Source: a virus (Duplodnaviria > Caudoviricetes). From it: a stretch of 35,643 nt of DNA. The position numbers were made by a program, and so were the translations under genes. The stretch is taken from positions 1-35,643 of the IMG/VR virus record IMGVR_UViG_3300011339_000249; one strand, written 5' to 3'. Position 1 is the stretch's first letter; the number at the start of each line of letters is the position of its first letter. Shown piece by piece: positions 549 to 33,933 of this stretch. Below the pieces are notes generated by a model, which saw only the letters and a program-made list of their open reading frames with translations, made no database searches and was not told the DNA's origin.

Positions 549-803
549 TCAACACTTCCATCTTTTAAGGGCTGCTTTGGCTCGCTCGCCGTCTTTGGCG
601 TGTGCCGCTACAGCGCCCATTCTTGCACAAAATGAAGCCTTGCGGCCTTCGTCTGCCTTGGTCTTTGGGTTGGGTGCTGGTGGTTTAAGGTTGGAGCCTG
701 TCTCTCGGTTGTACTTTTCGCGGCCTTTGGCCGTCAAGCCTGCACCTTTGGAAACGGGTAGTTTCTCACCTCGGCCAACGCTAAGAGATACGTTTTTTTT
801 CAT
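549..803 (-). CDS. Small basic conserved phage protein (SFCARM motif, DUF6321-like)
   Basis: MKKNVSLSVGRGEK...RKASFCARM...ALKRWKC; start reassigned to 803, giving an ATGA overlap with the terL stop. Confidence 0.75.
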   Translation of the reverse strand: MKKNVSLSVGRGEKLPVSKGAGLTAKGREKYNRETGSNLKPPAPNPKTKADEGRKASFCARMGAVAAHAKDGERAKAALKRWKC

Positions 804-2323
804 GCGCCCATCCAACCAGTTACCGCAGTGCCCTGCGCGTTAAAACGTGTGTGCGCTGGTTCTTTGTATTCTCTGTGCGCCACAGGAAAAGCAAACGTCA
901 CTGCAAGCGCATCAGCTGCATCTGGTGAAGCTAAACCTCTTGCTCGCATTTCTTTTTTGCCTTCCAAAAATATAGTGCCCGAAGAATTTGGTTTCTTTGT
1001 TGGGCCAGTAAAATCAGCTTTCAGTTGCCGATCTGTGGGAATACTAGCAGATTTCAGCCAGTTACGCATGTCATTCCACATCTCTGCTCGCTTATTTCCA
1101 AATGCTTGCGAGTGCTTGGCCTTATTCCCGAAATTCACACCCCGGACCTTGTACCTTTGCTCTGTCAGCCGGTCAAGAATGCCATACCCAAGGCCACCCT
1201 CATCGATGACGGTAAGCGTTGGTTTGTATTCCTCAATCGCATCAATCACCCGACCAACAATCTCCATCGTGTCCTCGCCCTTGTACCTCTTGATGGCCAC
1301 AATGTCCCGTCCTTGTCTCACCACAATCACAGTCGAATCTGCGCCACCGCGGGCTGGATCAACTCCCAAAATTATCGGTGCCGTCAAATCCTTGTAACGC
1401 GGGCGCTTGGCAGCGTCATCCACAATCACCGGGCTGATAAATTGATCTTCACCAGCTGAAGGAAACTCACCATACACCTCGACCTTGGCTTGGGCTGAGT
1501 CCTCGCCATATTCGGCAATGATCTGCTCATAAACCGACTTATCGGTGTCTTCCACCGTCCTAGCATCCACAATTTTGGACGTCCAAAAGTTGCGTTTGGC
1601 GTGAAAACACTCAAAAAAGTAGCCTTCATTGCGCCGCGGGTTAGAAAATGCAAACCAGTACCTGTCCGGCGTGTTTTCTGTAAAGAATCCAGCTCCAACT
1701 TCCCAAATCGGGTTAGGGATACCGCTAGATTCATCAAAAATCAACATCATGCCGTCTTGGTTGTGCACACCAGCGTAAGAATCGGGGTTTTCAGCACTCC
1801 AAAGCTTGCCTTCGCAGGCCCAATAACGGGTGCCTTTACGCAAATCGCGCTCTACCAGCTCGGTCAGCCATTGCGCCGGCACCAGTTTGGTGGCTGAAAT
1901 CTCCCACCAGTGCGAGTTAATAAGCATGGCTGCCCATTTGGTCAATTCTGCCCAGGTAACTGAGCGCAGCTGGTTCTCGCTGTTGGCGCTGACCACTACT
2001 GAGCCACCAATGCGAGTCGTTAGCATCCAAAGTATCAGCCAAGATACCAAGGCTGATTTGCCAATGCCTCGACCAGAAGATACAGCCATGCGGATGGTGT
2101 CATAATCAATCAAACCCTTTTGCTTCTTGATGTGCGCGGTTATATCCCTCAACACTTCTCGTTGCCATTTGCGCGGTCCACTAAACTTCTCCAGCGGCGT
2201 ATTCTTTTGACCCCAAGGAAAAGCAAACAGCACAAAAGCTTCAGGGTCATCAGCAATGGCCGGTGACCAAAGCTCCACCATCAGCTTTTGTTCTTCTTCA
2301 GACTTGTAGATCGTTGTTTGCAT
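800..2323 (-). CDS. terL: Terminase large subunit
   Basis: Walker A SGRGIGKS, Walker B LIFDES, coupling motif FSNP, RNase H-like nuclease motifs LGVDPARGGAD and SPDAADALA. Confidence 0.95.
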   Translation of the reverse strand: MQTTIYKSEEEQKLMVELWSPAIADDPEAFVLFAFPWGQKNTPLEKFSGPRKWQREVLRDITAHIKKQKGLIDYDTIRMAVSSGRGIGKSALVSWLILWMLTTRIGGSVVVSANSENQLRSVTWAELTKWAAMLINSHWWEISATKLVPAQWLTELVERDLRKGTRYWACEGKLWSAENPDSYAGVHNQDGMMLIFDESSGIPNPIWEVGAGFFTENTPDRYWFAFSNPRRNEGYFFECFHAKRNFWTSKIVDARTVEDTDKSVYEQIIAEYGEDSAQAKVEVYGEFPSAGEDQFISPVIVDDAAKRPRYKDLTAPIILGVDPARGGADSTVIVVRQGRDIVAIKRYKGEDTMEIVGRVIDAIEEYKPTLTVIDEGGLGYGILDRLTEQRYKVRGVNFGNKAKHSQAFGNKRAEMWNDMRNWLKSASIPTDRQLKADFTGPTKKPNSSGTIFLEGKKEMRARGLASPDAADALAVTFAFPVAHREYKEPAHTRFNAQGTAVTGWMGA

Positions 2324-2326
2324 TGA

Positions 2327-4375
2327 TTAAGGTGCAGCCAGGTAATTGGCTGGCTGCTCTGGTGCTGGTTGTGGTGCCAACATGTTTTTTGCAGCCATCG
2401 CTCCACCAGCAAGACCTGCAGTGCCAAGCATTGCAGCGGGAGTGGCGGCACCATAGTAAAGCTCTCGCCAATCACCTTCTTTCATCACCGGCTTGGTGCC
2501 GGTGTACCCTGCCTGCTTATGCGCGGCCAGCGCGTCGCGCATTTCTTGCCATGACTGCTTGGGCAACAACCTGTAGTCCGGATGGGCAAACTCATGGGGC
2601 TCCAACCTCTGGCGATAAACATCCCATTTGCGCCACTGTTCAGGAAACAACTCAATCGCTGGGTTTGCGCCCCTAGACTCATCAACGTAGTCAACCACTC
2701 TTTTGTAAAACGGGTTGAAGTCTTGCAGCTGCTTAGGCTCAAACGCCAATTTTTCAGGCGTGGCCACTCCAGGTATTTCATTCAATTCGCCAGTTTTGGT
2801 GCGATACATTTTCGACAATGATGATCCACCAATCACGTCAATGGCAGCCTTTTCAACCTTCTTGGTCGGCACTCCCAAAATAGCTTCTTTAGTTGGCTCA
2901 ACTCCCAACTTGCCAGCCATGCGAGTTCTAAATGCTTCCCCCACAATTGGATCGTCCAACATCCTCTCATACGAGTGCCGGATCATGTGCAAATCAACAG
3001 CCGACGTGTTTGCACGGTTTAAGTCCAACCAAGGCGTACCCAACGATGCAGTCTTTGGACCCAAGCCCGGCACCTGGTTCATTACCCTCAACGTCACATC
3101 CCTCATAGTCTCCCCAGGCGCAATCTGAAACATCTCAGGCTTGTCCAAAATCAATTTGGCCAACATCGCCTGATTCTTCAAATCTGCCGTGCCCAGCACT
3201 CCCATGCCACCGCGGCCAGCTGCCTGCACTCCCGTCTGCCCCTGCGCCGTGACAGACAAACCAGGCTCGCCAACCCTACCGGCCAGCGCCTTCAACTCAT
3301 CCATATTCGTCAACCTCAACCGCTGCGCCAAAAACTCATTGGGCGTCAACGGCGCATTAGGCGACAACTGGGCAAAACTCAACCGGTTAAACATGTCCAC
3401 CTGATCCGGATTGGCCACCTCATGCGTCCTGATCAACTTCTGCATCAGCTTGTCATGCACGTCCTTTGGCAGCGCCGCGGGATCAATATTGTTGGCCTTC
3501 ATCCAGAACATGTCCGGCACCGTAAACTTGCCCTCCAAACCACCAGGTATCTTGATCTCTCTCTTGCTGGTCAAGTCAGTAATGCCAAGCGACTTGGGCT
3601 CGGTCACCGTCATATTCACGCCGTGCTTCTCGCCCCAAGCTTTCCACTCAGCCTCACTCGCCTTGGCCCCTGGCGTCGTTGGCGCCTCACCCTTCATCCT
3701 TGTGCGCGTAGACAACGCATCATCAATCACCGACTTAGGCACATACCCGTTAATCTTAAAAGCCGGATTGTTCAATATTGATTTCGCTATATCTGGGTTG
3801 CCCTTCAATAACTTTTTCACCTCAGACCTCGGCACCGCGCTACCTGTGACTTCACCAGTAAAAGCCAAGTCGGCCAGCTCTTTATCCTTGCTGCTTAATT
3901 TTTGATATTGCTCTGCAATGTTCTGAAATTTTTGCAAATCAGTTGGCGGCCTTGCTGCGCCAGGCTGAACCGCAAAAGAAGGCTGCGGTGTAATTCCCCT
4001 TAACGGGCCTTCGTTAAACATTCCGCGCTCAATTTGCAGCAAAGCCTCTTTGCTTAAAAACTTTGCAGCAGGACCAAGAACTGTACGCAATGCCTGCATA
4101 CCAGGCCCAACCAAAGTAGCCATACCAGTGGCATACCCCTGCTCACCTCGACCAATAATATTTTGATAGTTTGGGTTCATTACGCTAAACCCCATCTGAT
4201 CAGGGCGCTCACCCAACATGCCACTGACAAAAGCATATGTCTGCGGATCAGGCAACATATTCACGTTTCTTTGCTGCGCTAATGCTCTTGCCTTTGCCCC
4301 TTGACGCTGAATATTCGGGTTGACAAACCCAACAAATTGATTTGCATCGTCAGGCGCCAGTTTATTTTTGGCCAT
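2327..4375 (-). CDS. 682-aa protein with an HhH-GPD superfamily DNA glycosylase-like domain; possibly virion-packaged
   Basis: FNRLSFAQLSPN, VPGLGPKTAS (HhH, Lys441) and AVDLHMIR (Asp461); low-complexity Ala/Gly/Pro/Gln ends resemble ejection proteins. Confidence 0.65.
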   Translation of the reverse strand: MAKNKLAPDDANQFVGFVNPNIQRQGAKARALAQQRNVNMLPDPQTYAFVSGMLGERPDQMGFSVMNPNYQNIIGRGEQGYATGMATLVGPGMQALRTVLGPAAKFLSKEALLQIERGMFNEGPLRGITPQPSFAVQPGAARPPTDLQKFQNIAEQYQKLSSKDKELADLAFTGEVTGSAVPRSEVKKLLKGNPDIAKSILNNPAFKINGYVPKSVIDDALSTRTRMKGEAPTTPGAKASEAEWKAWGEKHGVNMTVTEPKSLGITDLTSKREIKIPGGLEGKFTVPDMFWMKANNIDPAALPKDVHDKLMQKLIRTHEVANPDQVDMFNRLSFAQLSPNAPLTPNEFLAQRLRLTNMDELKALAGRVGEPGLSVTAQGQTGVQAAGRGGMGVLGTADLKNQAMLAKLILDKPEMFQIAPGETMRDVTLRVMNQVPGLGPKTASLGTPWLDLNRANTSAVDLHMIRHSYERMLDDPIVGEAFRTRMAGKLGVEPTKEAILGVPTKKVEKAAIDVIGGSSLSKMYRTKTGELNEIPGVATPEKLAFEPKQLQDFNPFYKRVVDYVDESRGANPAIELFPEQWRKWDVYRQRLEPHEFAHPDYRLLPKQSWQEMRDALAAHKQAGYTGTKPVMKEGDWRELYYGAATPAAMLGTAGLAGGAMAAKNMLAPQPAPEQPANYLAAP

Positions 4376-4483: not shown

Positions 4484-4644
4484 AATTGAAATGTACATTA
4501 AAAAAATAAAAAATTGTGTGCGGGGGCACCCGTTCTTGCGCCCTTTTGCGCCGGACCCTCCCCCCCCCCCATCGGGCCAGCGGGCGAGCTGGCCACCGGC
4601 GCTAGACACGCGGCGGCTGGTCATAAGCCAGCGCAAGCAGTAAG

Positions 4645-4748
4645 TTATCCACAGGCTGAGTGCATAATCAGGCCAAGGTTAGACACATTGCCCTGTGGAC
4701 AACTACATTCTGCACAATTAGTAGGCAGAAACGCATGAGTTATCCACA
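4645..4748. promoter_or_regulatory. DnaA-box cluster
   Basis: Perfect TTATCCACA at 4645-4653 and 4740-4748. Near matches: TTATGCACT (rc 4659-4667), TTGTCCACA (rc 4694-4702), TTCTGCACA (4708-4716). Confidence 0.7.
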
Positions 4749-4752
4749 ATTG

Positions 4753-4780
4753 ACTTAACATAATGGACATCGTGTTAAAT
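4753..4780. other. dif-like XerC/XerD recombination site (11-6-11)
   Basis: ACTTAACATAA-TGGACA-TCGTGTTAAAT. The reverse complement ends in TTATGTTAAGT, one mismatch from the E. coli XerD arm TTATGTTAAAT. Confidence 0.65.
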
Positions 4781-4813
4781 GGATATTGTCAGCATTCTGT
4801 AAGTATGTATATG

Positions 4814-4826
4814 AATCAACAGGTTA
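4814..4826 (+). promoter_or_regulatory. IHF binding site
   Basis: AATCAACAGGTTA matches WATCAANNNNTTR exactly, with an AT-rich upstream flank. Confidence 0.6.
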
Positions 4827-4847
4827 GCGTCAAAAGATATGCACATG

Positions 4848-5321
4848 CTACTTTGGCTCTACGTCGGTAATATCGTCCACCTTGGCCATACCGATTTGCA
4901 CCCTAGCTTGCGCCTGCTCCAGCGCCTGAATAACGCTGATCCGGTTGTCGCTGACGCTGACATCAAGCCGGTCACCATATGTCCGTGGCTTAAGCTTGCT
5001 AGCCACCCACTTGCGCGCATCGACCTGCAAGCGCTTCTGGTTCACCCATGCGCTGACTGCAACGCCTTCTAAATGGTCAGGGATGGGCTGATCTGCCAGT
5101 TCGACAATTTCCTCTGCCAAGCGGTCTGCTCGCTGCTCTACGGCCTTGTGATAGGCCTCCTTAAGCCTTTCATCAGCCTGAAGCATTCGCCAAGCGTGAA
5201 CGTAACTTGGCATACCCGGCTCGCGCAAAGCGCCAGATAAGCTGGCACCGCTGCTGATCTTGTCTAGGATGCCAGGCCAGATGTCCGCGGTGTATTCGAT
5301 TGGTCGTCCCATTTGCCCCAT
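4848..5321 (-). CDS. terS: Terminase small subunit (Sf6 gp1-like)
   Basis: N-terminal GRP plus HTH (GASLSGALREPGMPSY) and the RLQVDARKWVASKLKPRTYGD motif. Confidence 0.85.
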   Translation of the reverse strand: MGQMGRPIEYTADIWPGILDKISSGASLSGALREPGMPSYVHAWRMLQADERLKEAYHKAVEQRADRLAEEIVELADQPIPDHLEGVAVSAWVNQKRLQVDARKWVASKLKPRTYGDRLDVSVSDNRISVIQALEQAQARVQIGMAKVDDITDVEPK

Positions 5322-5445
5322 TTTTTGCCCTTTTAGATAAAACCTATCGGCACCAAATTGTCGATAGTCAAAACCTCACGCGTATTTATTTCAAATGTTT
5401 TGCGATCGCGAATCGCCCGGCCCGACATTTCTCATCTTCGCCTCC

Positions 5446-5481
5446 AAAAAAACGGGGTACTCACGACAACCGCTTTCCCCC
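5446..5481 (-). terminator. Intrinsic terminator with an internal loop-E/sarcin-ricin-type motif
   Basis: Minus strand GGGG-GAA-A-GCGG-UUG-UCGU-G-AGUA-CCCC followed by G-U7; lies between the resolvase and terS. Confidence 0.55.
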
Positions 5482-5511
5482 TAAAGCTGGCGGCAACTGA
5501 TACCAGCGCCG

Positions 5512-5850
5512 TCATGCTATCACCTCAATTTCGACCGCGTAGACTTTGGGGCCATCTTTGCGCTGCCTGTACTGCCAGTCGAGTTGTTGATGGCCATCAT
5601 CGACGCCAAGCCAATCGGCAACGCCATCCCGCACTGCTTTGAAGGCTGACTGTAGGTTGTCACCGTCTAATGCTCGCGGTGCAACTCTGGTCAACACCAG
5701 TGTGCATGGTGGAGCTGGTGGTGCGGCAACAGACGCCAAGGCGCTGAACGCTTTTGACCGGTGACTTTTGGCCAATTTTGCCTTCACAGCCCAATGCAAC
5801 CTTAAGTTCGCAACCGACACAATCTTCACTGGCATCCTAATTTCAATCAT
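5512..5850 (-). CDS. RusA-like Holliday junction resolvase/endonuclease
   Basis: Likely start MIEIRMP at 5850 (the longer ORF reads through the ori repeats); RusA-type acidic motif LDGDNLQSAFKAVRDG...GVDD. Confidence 0.75.
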   Translation of the reverse strand: MIEIRMPVKIVSVANLRLHWAVKAKLAKSHRSKAFSALASVAAPPAPPCTLVLTRVAPRALDGDNLQSAFKAVRDGVADWLGVDDGHQQLDWQYRQRKDGPKVYAVEIEVIA

Positions 5851-5879
5851 TTCCTGTTCCTTTTCCCGTCTTTCCCATT

Positions 5880-6081
5880 TCCCGATCCTTCCGATCCCAT
5901 CCGGCCCATCCGCCATCCGATCCTTCCTGTGTCTATAGACACAGGAGGAAGGATTCGGATGATTGGCGGGGTGGGAACCCGGATGACTTCGGATGACTTC
6001 GGATGATTCGGATGATAATTCGGATGCATCCTTACTCATCCGATTCGGATGACTTCGGATGACTTCGGATGGTCTGGATGA
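5880..6081. repeat. Putative replication origin: 22-bp palindrome flanked by inverted iterons
   Basis: Perfect palindrome TCCTGTGTCTATAGACACAGGA (5925-5946). Many (T)CGGATG(AC) repeats lie on the right and (C)ATCCG/CCGATCC repeats on the left, directly downstream of the primase-helicase. Confidence 0.75.
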
Positions 6082-31692: not shown

Positions 31693-33933
31693 TCAAAATC
31701 TCCTTCTTTCGGTAAATGACCGAAGTTTAACCAACAATTGATCTGTGTTAATTGTTATTGAACTGTATGTGATAACGGCATTTTGACCTGTTACGCCATA
31801 CGTTCCCGAATCACCCAGTAAAAATCTGCCTTTGGAAAGTGTAGCAGATTGTCCGGTTATGGTATAGACACCGTAATCACCTGATAAAGCCTTTGAGCGT
31901 AACAAAGTAGCAGACTGACCAGTTACTGCGTAAGCACCGTAATCACCTGATAAAGCCTTTGAGCGTAACAAAGTAGCAGACTGACCAGTTATGGTATACG
32001 AGCCATTGTTTGCGCTTAAAACTTTAGAACGTAATAGACTTGCGGATTGTCCGGTTACTGCATAGGAGCCATTGTTTGCCGCTATGGTGTACCCTCCGTT
32101 GAATATCCATCCAATGTTACCGCCACCGTCTACATTTCCATTGGCTGTTGGCGCTAACCAAGTTGCACCGCCTGTAGCGATATTATTTGAAATATTTAAA
32201 TAAGATGTAGTTACAGTTCCGCTTGGCTTACTTAAAATTCCACCATCTAGAATATTTACTATACTGCTATTTCCATCTATAAGTAGACTAGAAACATTTA
32301 ATGTTGAACCAGCAACAAGTTGAATTTGTGCAGAAAAGGCATTTGAAGGAGAATTATTTGTTAATAGATTTGTTATTGTTTGCGTATTTCCAAGGCTTCC
32401 AATAGTAAGAGTTTGAAGAGAAGAAGCACTTCTATTTAATGTTACTGAAGGAAAAGTAGCGTTAGGAACATTTAAAGATGTAGTACTTCCACCAAAAACA
32501 AATGAAGACCCTGTAAAATCAACGGTAGTTCCTGTAAGAGTCCCAATAAATTGATTAGATATTGTAATAGTTGAGTTAAGGGTTATAGTTTTTGTGCTTA
32601 CATTATTAAAATTAAAACTAACGCAATTTAAATTGTAACTATTAGAATCAAATGATGAAGAGACAGTCCAAGTCCCACCCGTAACAGAATTTGATAATTT
32701 ATATATTGTTCCTGCCCCACCACTAATGTTTGTGGCAGTGGGCATAGAAGCAAAAACTGACTGTATGAAATTTGTTCTTGACGTATTAGTAGAAGAAAAA
32801 GTTATTGATGTAAATGGAGAACTGCTACTAAAATTATTTTGGTTTAAATAACTTCCATAAATGGTTGGCGTACTATTTGTATATGTATGAACGCCGCCAG
32901 CATTTAATAAAGTTAAATCTAAAACATAAGAACTGCTTAAAGCAATGGTTGCACCGCTGTTGCCAAAAGTAAAATTAAGGGCTTTGGCTTCTGCGCCGCC
33001 AGCCGATGTTCCGTGAGCAATAGTACAAGTACCAGACGTAGGAGAGAAACTTACGTTTGGAGTACCAGTGCATGAAAAATTTGTAATGTCTGGAAAATCC
33101 CAATACGTTGCACTAGCCGACCTTGTGTTTACATAAGACCCTGTACCAAAAGCAATAGCCCTTGTATTGTTATTGTTTGAAGAAAAAATTCCAAAATGAG
33201 TTAATGTGAAATTATTTAAATCTAGTGTGCCTGACGTTAATGTTATTGTTCTTAATGTTGTAGTGCCAACAGCTAAAGCATCTTGTAATCTGTAAGTTGC
33301 AGTACCAGAAAATGTAATTGGAAAATTTAAATTTAATGCCGCACTTACTATATTTTGTGTTCCGCTGGTAGCCGCAAAAGTTACCACGCCTGTGCCAGTA
33401 GCTATAGTCATTCCTGATTTAAATGTCAAATTACCATAAATCGTTAGCGTAGTACCAGTGGAACTAGCTTTTGACCCTGTAAATGTATTACTATAAACAA
33501 GACTTCTAATTGCTGTGCCAGTAGTAAAGTTTGTACTACCAGTTCCAGCAACAAATTGAAAACTTATGCTGTTTGCTTCTGTTGGCAATCCTGCATTAAT
33601 TGTCCTTGATGTTCCAGAACTATTTGTGCAAACTATTAGCGGAGTTCCGGTTACGTTATATGTTGCCGCACCAGTAAAAATAGTTCCTGTACTATTTAAA
33701 GAAATTGTATTTGTTCCAAATGCCAGAGTTCCAGTAAACCCCGTCATTGTTAGCGTTTGAATCGTAACGCTTACATTTACTGTTGCAGTACCAGCACCTG
33801 ATAACGCATTAAATGTCGCCGTATCTGCTGTACTTGGGACACTCGCACCCCTTGCGCCGCCAGATGTAGCACTCCAATTAGATGTGCTTGTCCAGTTACC
33901 TGAACCGCCAGAAACCCAAAATCTTGCCGCCAT
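31693..33933 (-). CDS. Large beta-helix-like fibre/adhesin with five C-terminal 22-aa repeats
   Basis: 746 aa, T/S/G/N-rich; N-terminus RFWVSGGSGNWTSTSNWSATSGG; visibly AT-richer than the flanks. Confidence 0.7.
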   Translation of the reverse strand: MAARFWVSGGSGNWTSTSNWSATSGGARGASVPSTADTATFNALSGAGTATVNVSVTIQTLTMTGFTGTLAFGTNTISLNSTGTIFTGAATYNVTGTPLIVCTNSSGTSRTINAGLPTEANSISFQFVAGTGSTNFTTGTAIRSLVYSNTFTGSKASSTGTTLTIYGNLTFKSGMTIATGTGVVTFAATSGTQNIVSAALNLNFPITFSGTATYRLQDALAVGTTTLRTITLTSGTLDLNNFTLTHFGIFSSNNNNTRAIAFGTGSYVNTRSASATYWDFPDITNFSCTGTPNVSFSPTSGTCTIAHGTSAGGAEAKALNFTFGNSGATIALSSSYVLDLTLLNAGGVHTYTNSTPTIYGSYLNQNNFSSSSPFTSITFSSTNTSRTNFIQSVFASMPTATNISGGAGTIYKLSNSVTGGTWTVSSSFDSNSYNLNCVSFNFNNVSTKTITLNSTITISNQFIGTLTGTTVDFTGSSFVFGGSTTSLNVPNATFPSVTLNRSASSLQTLTIGSLGNTQTITNLLTNNSPSNAFSAQIQLVAGSTLNVSSLLIDGNSSIVNILDGGILSKPSGTVTTSYLNISNNIATGGATWLAPTANGNVDGGGNIGWIFNGGYTIAANNGSYAVTGQSASLLRSKVLSANNGSYTITGQSATLLRSKALSGDYGAYAVTGQSATLLRSKALSGDYGVYTITGQSATLSKGRFLLGDSGTYGVTGQNAVITYSSITINTDQLLVKLRSFTERRRF
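31869..31991. repeat. 57-bp perfect direct repeat (66-bp period)
   Basis: 31869-31925 is identical to 31935-31991; encodes TGQSATLLRSKALSGDYG. Confidence 0.9.

Follow-up and report, generated by a model that had tools for sequence, protein, structure and literature searches.

What use would a tailed phage that encodes no integrase make of a site resembling bacterial dif, and why would this site be located beside its packaging genes? The question is raised by a podovirus genome of 35,643 nucleotides (IMG/VR record IMGVR_UViG_3300011339_000249, at its full length referred to as the window), which is rated 98% complete and encodes a P22-like portal and capsid, an Sf6-like terminase small subunit (terS), a primase-helicase, a helicase, a Sak4-like annealing protein and a Cas4-domain exonuclease. 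A sequence-only reading had recognized a dif-like site and the absence of a recombinase ORF in this genome, and had regarded the middle of the portal as its only missing part. Latter statement agrees with the presence of N- and C-terminal pieces of the portal at opposite ends of the contig. A search of six frames and 53 ORFs of the window yielded no recombinase of the tyrosine or serine type. In the same way, none of 53 records contains a match to PF00589 and thus an integrase (0/30, 0/22 and 0/1). Neither ParA nor a family A polymerase was detected in any of the five genomes searched, which include the window, and an HTH_3 repressor, present in two of four relatives, has no match in the window. 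A 746-aa ORF at 31693-33933 on the minus strand, located between the head genes and the portal in a stretch of low GC content (35-39%), shows no family match.

A Xer core site of comamonad type

On the minus strand, positions 4753-4780 of the window read ATTTAACACGA TGTCCA TTATGTTAAGT and thus display the 11-6-11 layout of a XerCD core site, with an 11-bp XerC arm (4780-4770), a spacer of 6 bp (4769-4764), within the 6-8 bp that are allowed, and an 11-bp XerD arm (4763-4753), both arms being of host type. The identification relies on the pairing of the arms. Single arms with two mismatches are found in the window at chance level (11 matches vs. 10.3 expected), whereas the paired site reaches 32.7 bits on a matrix built from 46 dif sites of Limnohabitans and comamonad hosts, compared to 1.5 bits at the next-best other place of the window and 12.7 bits in the best of 40 dinucleotide shuffles. 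The site detected in the sequence-only reading is thus clearly borne out. Its similarity extends to the dif of Rhodoferax ferrireducens, as listed in a table row of PMC2731167, with 23 of 28 identical positions that are distributed over the XerD arm (11/11), the XerC arm (8/11) and the spacer (4/6).

The same arms, when searched with a free spacer, are found in host chromosomes. Among 121 genomes of the genus to which a Limnohabitans-labelled bin belongs, the pattern occurs in 80 (92 matches, compared to 2 for the reversed pattern), and among 301 genomes of its family in 122 (138 matches, compared to 6). These matches are sites of the type (..)ATACGA-TGTATA-TTATGTTAA, with a spacer that is nearly always TGTATA or TGCATA. 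Owing to these matches and to the similarity to the Rhodoferax site, we assign the left arm as the XerC arm of comamonads. It had been described earlier as a second XerD-like arm, and the underlying counts are correct, since the canonical XerD arm matches 4753-4763 with one and 4770-4780 with two mismatches. The interpretation as a double XerD arm is nevertheless rejected, and with it the basis for a proposed sequestration of XerD is gone. The site is indeed quasi-palindromic, but so is the dif of comamonads to an equal extent. An assignment of the left arm as XerC arm of the cer/psi type was rejected as well, as a pattern based on this idea matched 6 of 121 genomes, which is chance level. In the comparison with candidate hosts the arms thus correspond to the comamonad type while the spacer differs, and we predict the host to be a Limnohabitans-like comamonad, a proposal based on the dif match, as the five genome contigs containing the site come with bin labels that are mixed and unreliable. 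Nine genomes of the Limnohabitans-type genus contain a second dif-like site, which has the spacer TTAATC or TTTATC and lies at a distance of 50-120 kb from dif where both are on the same contig.

The site is embedded in a gene-free cassette, which on the coding strand leads from the terS stop codon (4848) through an IHF motif, two 6-bp repeats, the XerC arm, the spacer, the XerD arm, DnaA boxes, a G tract and a T tract to an ORF of 682 residues and to the gene of the terminase large subunit (terL). The gene of the Sf6-like small subunit (phrog_1482, PF20901) extends over 4848-5321 on the minus strand and the core begins 68 bp past its stop codon. The IHF consensus (4814-4826, plus strand) is located 33 bp from the XerC arm, and the direct repeats CTTACA/CTGACA, which are 11 bp apart (4787-4803, minus strand), lie in between. 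On the other side, a perfect DnaA box TTATCCACA (4740-4748, plus strand) is found 4 bp from the XerD arm, as had been stated before, followed by a DnaA-like box with one mismatch (4694-4702, minus strand) at 50 bp and a further perfect box (4645-4653, plus strand) at 99 bp. The G tract (4556-4570, minus strand), a candidate marker of the genome end, holds one KOPS-like octamer directed away from the site, and a T-rich tract (4500-4514, minus strand) lies past it, upstream of the next ORF. This ORF (2327-4375, minus strand), without match in Pfam or PHROG, separates the cassette from terL (800-2323, minus strand). Motif assignments follow the consensus sequences of DnaA, IHF and KOPS together with the dif spacer of E. 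coli. Both consensus DnaA boxes of the entire window reside in the cassette and, as 4.9 would be expected window-wide, it is their clustering and not their number that is notable. A scan for promoters and terminators remained at chance level.

Several observations concern its surroundings. The IHF consensus occurs nine times in the window compared to 1.7 expected, with the other positions at 4156, 4330, 17280, 20340, 21439, 27549, 27552 and 32544. The CTTACA/CTGACA repeats are kept across cassettes of the window type, and similar CTGACA words are found near the ends of phiM5 and YN3. The 682-aa ORF is inserted between G tract and terL and absent from ten related genomes compared, many relatives containing terL or other genes in its place.

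Conservation and geometry of the cassette

To follow the site in relatives, we have used the downstream DNA of 79 out of 80 terS homologues in IMG/VR. The site is kept in 67 of them, 14-240 bp after the terS stop codon, in 54 cases in the orientation of the window and in 13 inverted, and each of these 67 loci contains at least one DnaA-like box. The other 12 loci carry neither site nor boxes, and their G tract follows the stop codon at 17-31 bp; DnaA boxes are thus gained or lost together with the core. In a terS tree of 63 rows, the site-less loci form a single clade (support 99/97), and about five changes are required to account for the inversions relative to terS. Four of four complete genomes of this clade lack the site anywhere, though their terL is 91-93% identical, and they show no match to the primase-helicase of the window. 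Conversely, each of six complete cassette-bearing genomes contains a single site.

The distribution of the site extends beyond the relatives of terS. A scan with the core pattern retrieved at least 119 loci (about 460 estimated), with the exact 28-mer of the window in 21 of 119 among the matches listed. Many copies of this 28-mer adjoin terL genes that are just 29% alike, in line with the 29-31% found between the terL of cassette-bearing lineages. Family matches of 31 ORFs neighbouring representative loci are mostly to terS and terL, and some lineages have none. When loci were chosen by the XerD arm and a DnaA box alone, a comamonad-type XerC arm was found exactly 6 bp upstream in 171 of 238 scorable loci, a set that remained after leaving out two cut loci and that overlaps with the other locus sets. 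Likewise, T predominates at the unselected arm positions 3 and 4, with 220 and 212 occurrences, respectively, in 221 distinct contexts. The conservation in relatives and at these unselected positions suggests that the arms are under selection. In a test for a crossover hotspot at the core with 50 cassettes, all pairs of segments were weakly correlated (0.04-0.40).

The arrangement of flanking motifs was analysed in 136 contexts chosen without regard to DnaA boxes. The boxes are found on the XerD side in 129 and on the XerC side in 57 of these contexts, with gaps on the XerD side that recur at 4, 10, 50-51, 65-66, 76, 88-90 and 99-100 bp. The most common gap of 50-51 bp accounts for 89 matches and that of 99-100 bp for 36, and the gap of 4 bp is present in 30 contexts, all three being represented in the window. 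The IHF consensus is confined to the XerC side (53 matches vs. 0), at distances of 33-34 or 43-45 bp that differ by one helical turn. The motif thus occupies the side on which the accessory sequences are located at cer and psi. In 128 of the 136 contexts, the core has a G/C tract no farther than 290 bp away, at distances of 30-219 bp, compared to 7% of random window positions. In the flanks of the 221 contexts, which were partly selected on DnaA boxes, we counted 802 DnaA-like and 65 IHF matches compared to about 17 and 2 per shuffled set. The conservation of arms and 6-bp spacing, together with a coupling to DnaA and IHF motifs, is thus upheld among relatives. KOPS show no polarity towards the site, with four in the window, the nearest of which is directed away, and 0-7 without shared bias in each of ten genomes, although small replicons need not show a bias. 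The ori-plus-ter mimic suggested in the sequence-only reading is thus a conjecture, with DnaA boxes that are present and phased and with KOPS polarity absent. At the level of sequence, these results confirm that the window contains a genuine, conserved and host-typed Xer site, which belongs to a cassette of three motifs at the packaging end and from which we infer its function.

Unlike the arms, the spacer of the window (TGTCCA, 4764-4769, minus strand) deviates from the host spacers TGTATA and TGCATA. We find 26 different spacers among the 221 contexts, with variation even between close relatives and with a constraint on the first and last bases (T/C and A/G). With respect to the spacer homology of IMEX, the TGT triplet of the host is kept on the XerC side in 104/221 sites, including the window, while the ATA triplet of the host is found on the XerD side in 0/221, with CCA in 149/221. 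The same CCA is found in the Xer site of the pSC101 record, which has the spacer GATCCA and which we take to be psi. A spacer identical to that of host dif, as it defines chromosomal-type sites under the control of FtsK, is present in 0/221 phage sites. Its search in the complete IMG/VR retrieved 23 viral contigs of 6-19 kb that contain neither DnaA boxes nor terminase matches. The 26 spacers, the counts of both triplets and the features of the host-spacer contigs argue for a partner site in the phage itself and not in the host. The 23 short contigs, which contain an exact comamonad dif, are likely elements integrated at dif.

Relation to host dif and to the end of the phage genome

Integration via host Xer, as suggested in the sequence-only reading, appears unlikely from the sequences. 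The spacer is never that of the host and varies among close relatives, and neither a junction at host dif nor a related prophage with junctions inside the 28-mer was found in bin contigs, public contigs, the sets of 121 and 301 genomes and 401 genomes of the order, an absence that applies to these samples and is not proof. The five genome-bin contigs carry an intact cassette with phage DNA on both sides. Ten of the 401 genomes of the order have a terS relative, with the site on a known phage contig only, and public contigs that break at the site have loose ends matching other cassette-bearing phage lineages. The spacer of the window and the other commonest phage spacers are found in none of the 92 and 138 host-genome matches.

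Five host-genome sites with the same core and non-host spacers, present as second dif-like sites, are located in satellite-like elements of comamonad-family chromosomes. Four have spacers common to 8/221 phage sites and the fifth an odd one. Each of the five has a tyrosine integrase gene at a distance of no more than about 1.5 kb. A PriCT-2/Toprim primase is nearby in two cases and a terminase match in none, and we have thus rejected those sharing phage spacers as phage integrations. An IHF-like motif at 45-46 bp from the XerC arm is present in two of the satellite-like sites, and a DnaA-like box on that side in four.

For the location of the genome end, we have turned to cultured phages. In Sinorhizobium phage phiM5, whose terL is 54.5% identical to that of a cassette-bearing lineage, an annotated terminal repeat of 357 bp extends 25 bp beyond a C tract, with its end 36 bp short of terL, and the same layout mapped on the window would span approximately 4530-4886 and thus the whole cassette. 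By analogy, we place the genome end approximately 25 bp beyond the G tract and propose a repeat that would be long enough to hold the site. phiM5 encodes its own integrase and has no Xer site near its ends, and the accessible part of PMC10386132 contains nothing on its termini. The cassette is absent from the nearest named records by terL (DU_RP_II, phiM5, DSL-LC05 and three from Manatee Spring). A site of enterobacterial type matched 247 phage records, many of them rV5-like, and three of these records were examined closely. In Erwinia phage Hena1, an annotated terminal repeat of 519 bp contains such a site at 289-316, its spacer being altered, and two rV5-like E. coli records have the same kind of site near their start, at distances of 170 and 263 bp. 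These three sites combine canonical enterobacterial arms and altered spacers with an absence of DnaA or IHF neighbours. A fixed position at the packaging end constitutes the main clue to the role of the site, which appears tied to this end and not to a replication module, as indicated by the terminase neighbours, the G/C tract in 128/136 contexts and the approximately five inversions.

Canonical enterobacterial XerC and XerD arms with an altered spacer are thus a feature of cultured lytic Vequintavirinae. In a further record, of a Rheinheimera phage without annotation of an end, a weaker site occupies a non-coding gap. Nucleotide searches with the window region or the comamonad dif gave weak chance matches in cultured phages, and plasmid records yielded weak chance matches and no similar cassette. 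Three viral contigs of 31 kb (284-417), 262 kb (1077-1211) and 37 kb (23-50) combine DnaA boxes with Xer sites that belong to other host types, and in two cases these sites form pairs 106-107 bp apart with several IHF motifs. We have dropped read depth as evidence for a terminal repeat, which was twofold over 4755-5965 in two of four runs and slightly raised or flat in four others, since all runs consist of contigs and most are possibly the source of the window. A pile-up of contig ends was rejected as well, since the 49 ends that fall within 700 bp, in a set of 197 sites, are scattered.

Possible functions of the site

Among the three initially proposed uses of the site, action on the DNA of the phage itself fits best, in contrast to integration and XerD sequestration. 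The explanation that we favour, with about even confidence, assigns the site to recombination between two phage copies at the genome end, which would circularize the genome via its short terminal repeat. Host XerC and XerD would bind the core, and IHF and DnaA the flanking motifs. Two copies, one in each repeat, would recombine to convert the incoming genome into a circle, with IHF on the XerC side shaping the synapse in a similar manner as accessory sequences at cer and psi. The changed spacer would block full exchange with host dif, and the same site might later serve to monomerize or unlink replicated circles. We prefer circularization over multimer resolution or unlinking alone because of the probable location of the site at the genome end.

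Elements of this proposal have precedents. In P1, loxP and Cre are located near pac, and the terminal redundancy holds two copies of the site for circularization and also for the resolution of dimers. The placement for two copies in redundant ends would be similar, yet P1 encodes its recombinase while the proposed enzyme here is the XerCD of the host. The comamonad chromosomal system of dif, XerCD and FtsK, as found in Rhodoferax and Limnohabitans, shares the single-copy, intergenic 28-bp core with its matching arms and is distinguished from the phage-borne site by its spacer, the lack of KOPS polarity and the IHF and DnaA flanks of latter. Closer in organization are psi of pSC101 and cer of ColE1, where a core for host recombinases on an extrachromosomal element has a non-dif spacer and a host-protein motif at fixed distance on the XerC side, which is the side of the accessory sequences at cer and psi. 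Still, these use PepA/ArcA or PepA/ArgR, whereas IHF and DnaA are the candidates in the tailed phages, where the DnaA boxes flank the XerD arm and the site is positioned at the packaging end. IMEX, including CTXphi, VGJphi, TLCphi, dif-type double-jelly-roll phages, gokushoviruses and the GGI, equally combine a dif-like site with the lack of an integrase, but known members integrate and are mostly non-tailed, according to parts of PMC12715192 and PMC5357621, whereas the site described here is located within a packaging operon, with no junction found and with homology to the host spacer on the XerC side in 104/221 sites and on the XerD side in none. Finally, the iss of T5, as described in parts of bioRxiv 10.1101/866236, shows conserved DnaA boxes in non-coding DNA at a genome end, although in a different phage with a multi-kb repeat and two-step injection, and these parts contain no mention of Xer.

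Several findings stand against circularization by Xer. The window phage is represented by assembled contigs only, with ends placed by analogy to phiM5 and Hena1, a site-less clade has nearly the same terL, and the rV5-like sites lack DnaA and IHF neighbours. XerD normally depends on FtsK, and recombination at cer and psi requires a supercoiled substrate (as described in parts of PMC5357621 and bioRxiv 2024.04.05.588136), which makes a joining of linear ends by Xer hard to explain. The Sf6-like TerS and the P22-like portal and capsid could indicate headful packaging, and the Sak4-like protein together with the Cas4-domain exonuclease could circularize a repeat without Xer. A wider version of the favoured reading, in which many lytic tailed phages from comamonad podoviruses to rV5-like myoviruses circularize via a host Xer site in their terminal repeat, is advanced tentatively and as less probable. 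For the comamonad phages, this version regards IHF and DnaA as a new set of accessory factors by which exchange would be activated or completed without FtsK, with XerC making a Holliday junction that is resolved by a fork started by DnaA, and the changed spacer would keep the phage off host dif.

The evidence on arms and spacers would equally be accounted for if host XerCD acted exclusively on intracellular circles, for multimer resolution or decatenation during early theta replication or in a plasmid-like carrier state, with the proximity to the terminase genes reflecting free non-coding space. The pSC101-type CCA (149/221), IHF on the side of the cer/psi accessory sequences and the satellite-like elements, where such sites coexist with another enzyme for integration, agree with this possibility. 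We nevertheless find it doubtful, since it leaves the G/C tract near the core of unrelated lineages unexplained, ParA is absent in 5/5 genomes and a repressor match is lacking in the window, and since concatemers and not monomers are the usual substrate of phage packaging. A function without any recombination, in which the cassette serves as docking pad for the titration of XerCD, IHF or DnaA, for the blocking or loading of FtsK or topoisomerase IV or for anchoring or starting the replication of first-entering DNA, would explain the phasing of DnaA boxes along the side of the XerD arm (129/136) and their gain and loss with the core. It would also be compatible with the missing family A polymerase and with the proposed role of DnaA arrays in the T5 terminal repeat as injection anchors (in parts of bioRxiv 866236). 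As a single copy per genome is a poor sink, and as the exact 6-bp spacing, the constrained end bases and the host-avoiding middle suggest strand exchange, with no KOPS polarity being found, we regard such a function as rather improbable.

We consider it very unlikely that the site is an attP for insertion at host dif, in the manner of IMEX or by a VGJ-like XerC-first route. The absence of an integrase, the host-type arms and the TGT kept in the window and 104/221 sites would fit, and an XerC-first integration that is completed by replication is known (from parts of PMC9226527). Yet 117/221 sites lack this triplet, phage spacers are missing from the host-genome matches, the bin contigs are flanked by phage DNA, the site in genomes with a terS relative is restricted to a phage contig, the loose ends lead to other phages, and an insertion at this place would separate terS from terL. 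Least probable of all, and in our view scarcely credible, is a packaging signal whose motifs bind terminase or other phage proteins and resemble those of the host by origin or chance. Its position in the packaging region and the CTTACA/CTGACA repeats, which match no known host binder, speak in its favour. Against it stand the identical 28-mer next to terS and terL of unrelated lineages (in 21/119 among the matches listed), the lack of the site in a clade whose terL is almost the same, and the score of 32.7 bits for a match to the dif of a specific host type.

Several unrelated freshwater tailed phages thus carry a comamonad dif with an altered centre beside their packaging genes, where it would likely serve the joining of their own genome ends by host XerC and XerD rather than insertion into the host. 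To our knowledge, the circularization of phages with short terminal repeats is largely assumed and not demonstrated, and a literature search, with subscription journals mostly outside its reach, retrieved no report of host Xer sites at the genome ends of tailed phages. If the proposal is correct, lytic tailed phages would newly be found to depend on the host XerCD, an enzyme of chromosome segregation, and IHF and DnaA might provide a new form of accessory control of Xer. As the XerC arm is specific for host groups, the site would predict Limnohabitans-like comamonads as hosts for hundreds of uncultured freshwater phages, and cultured rV5-like phages with a site in their terminal repeat would make the XerCD route directly testable in E. 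coli.
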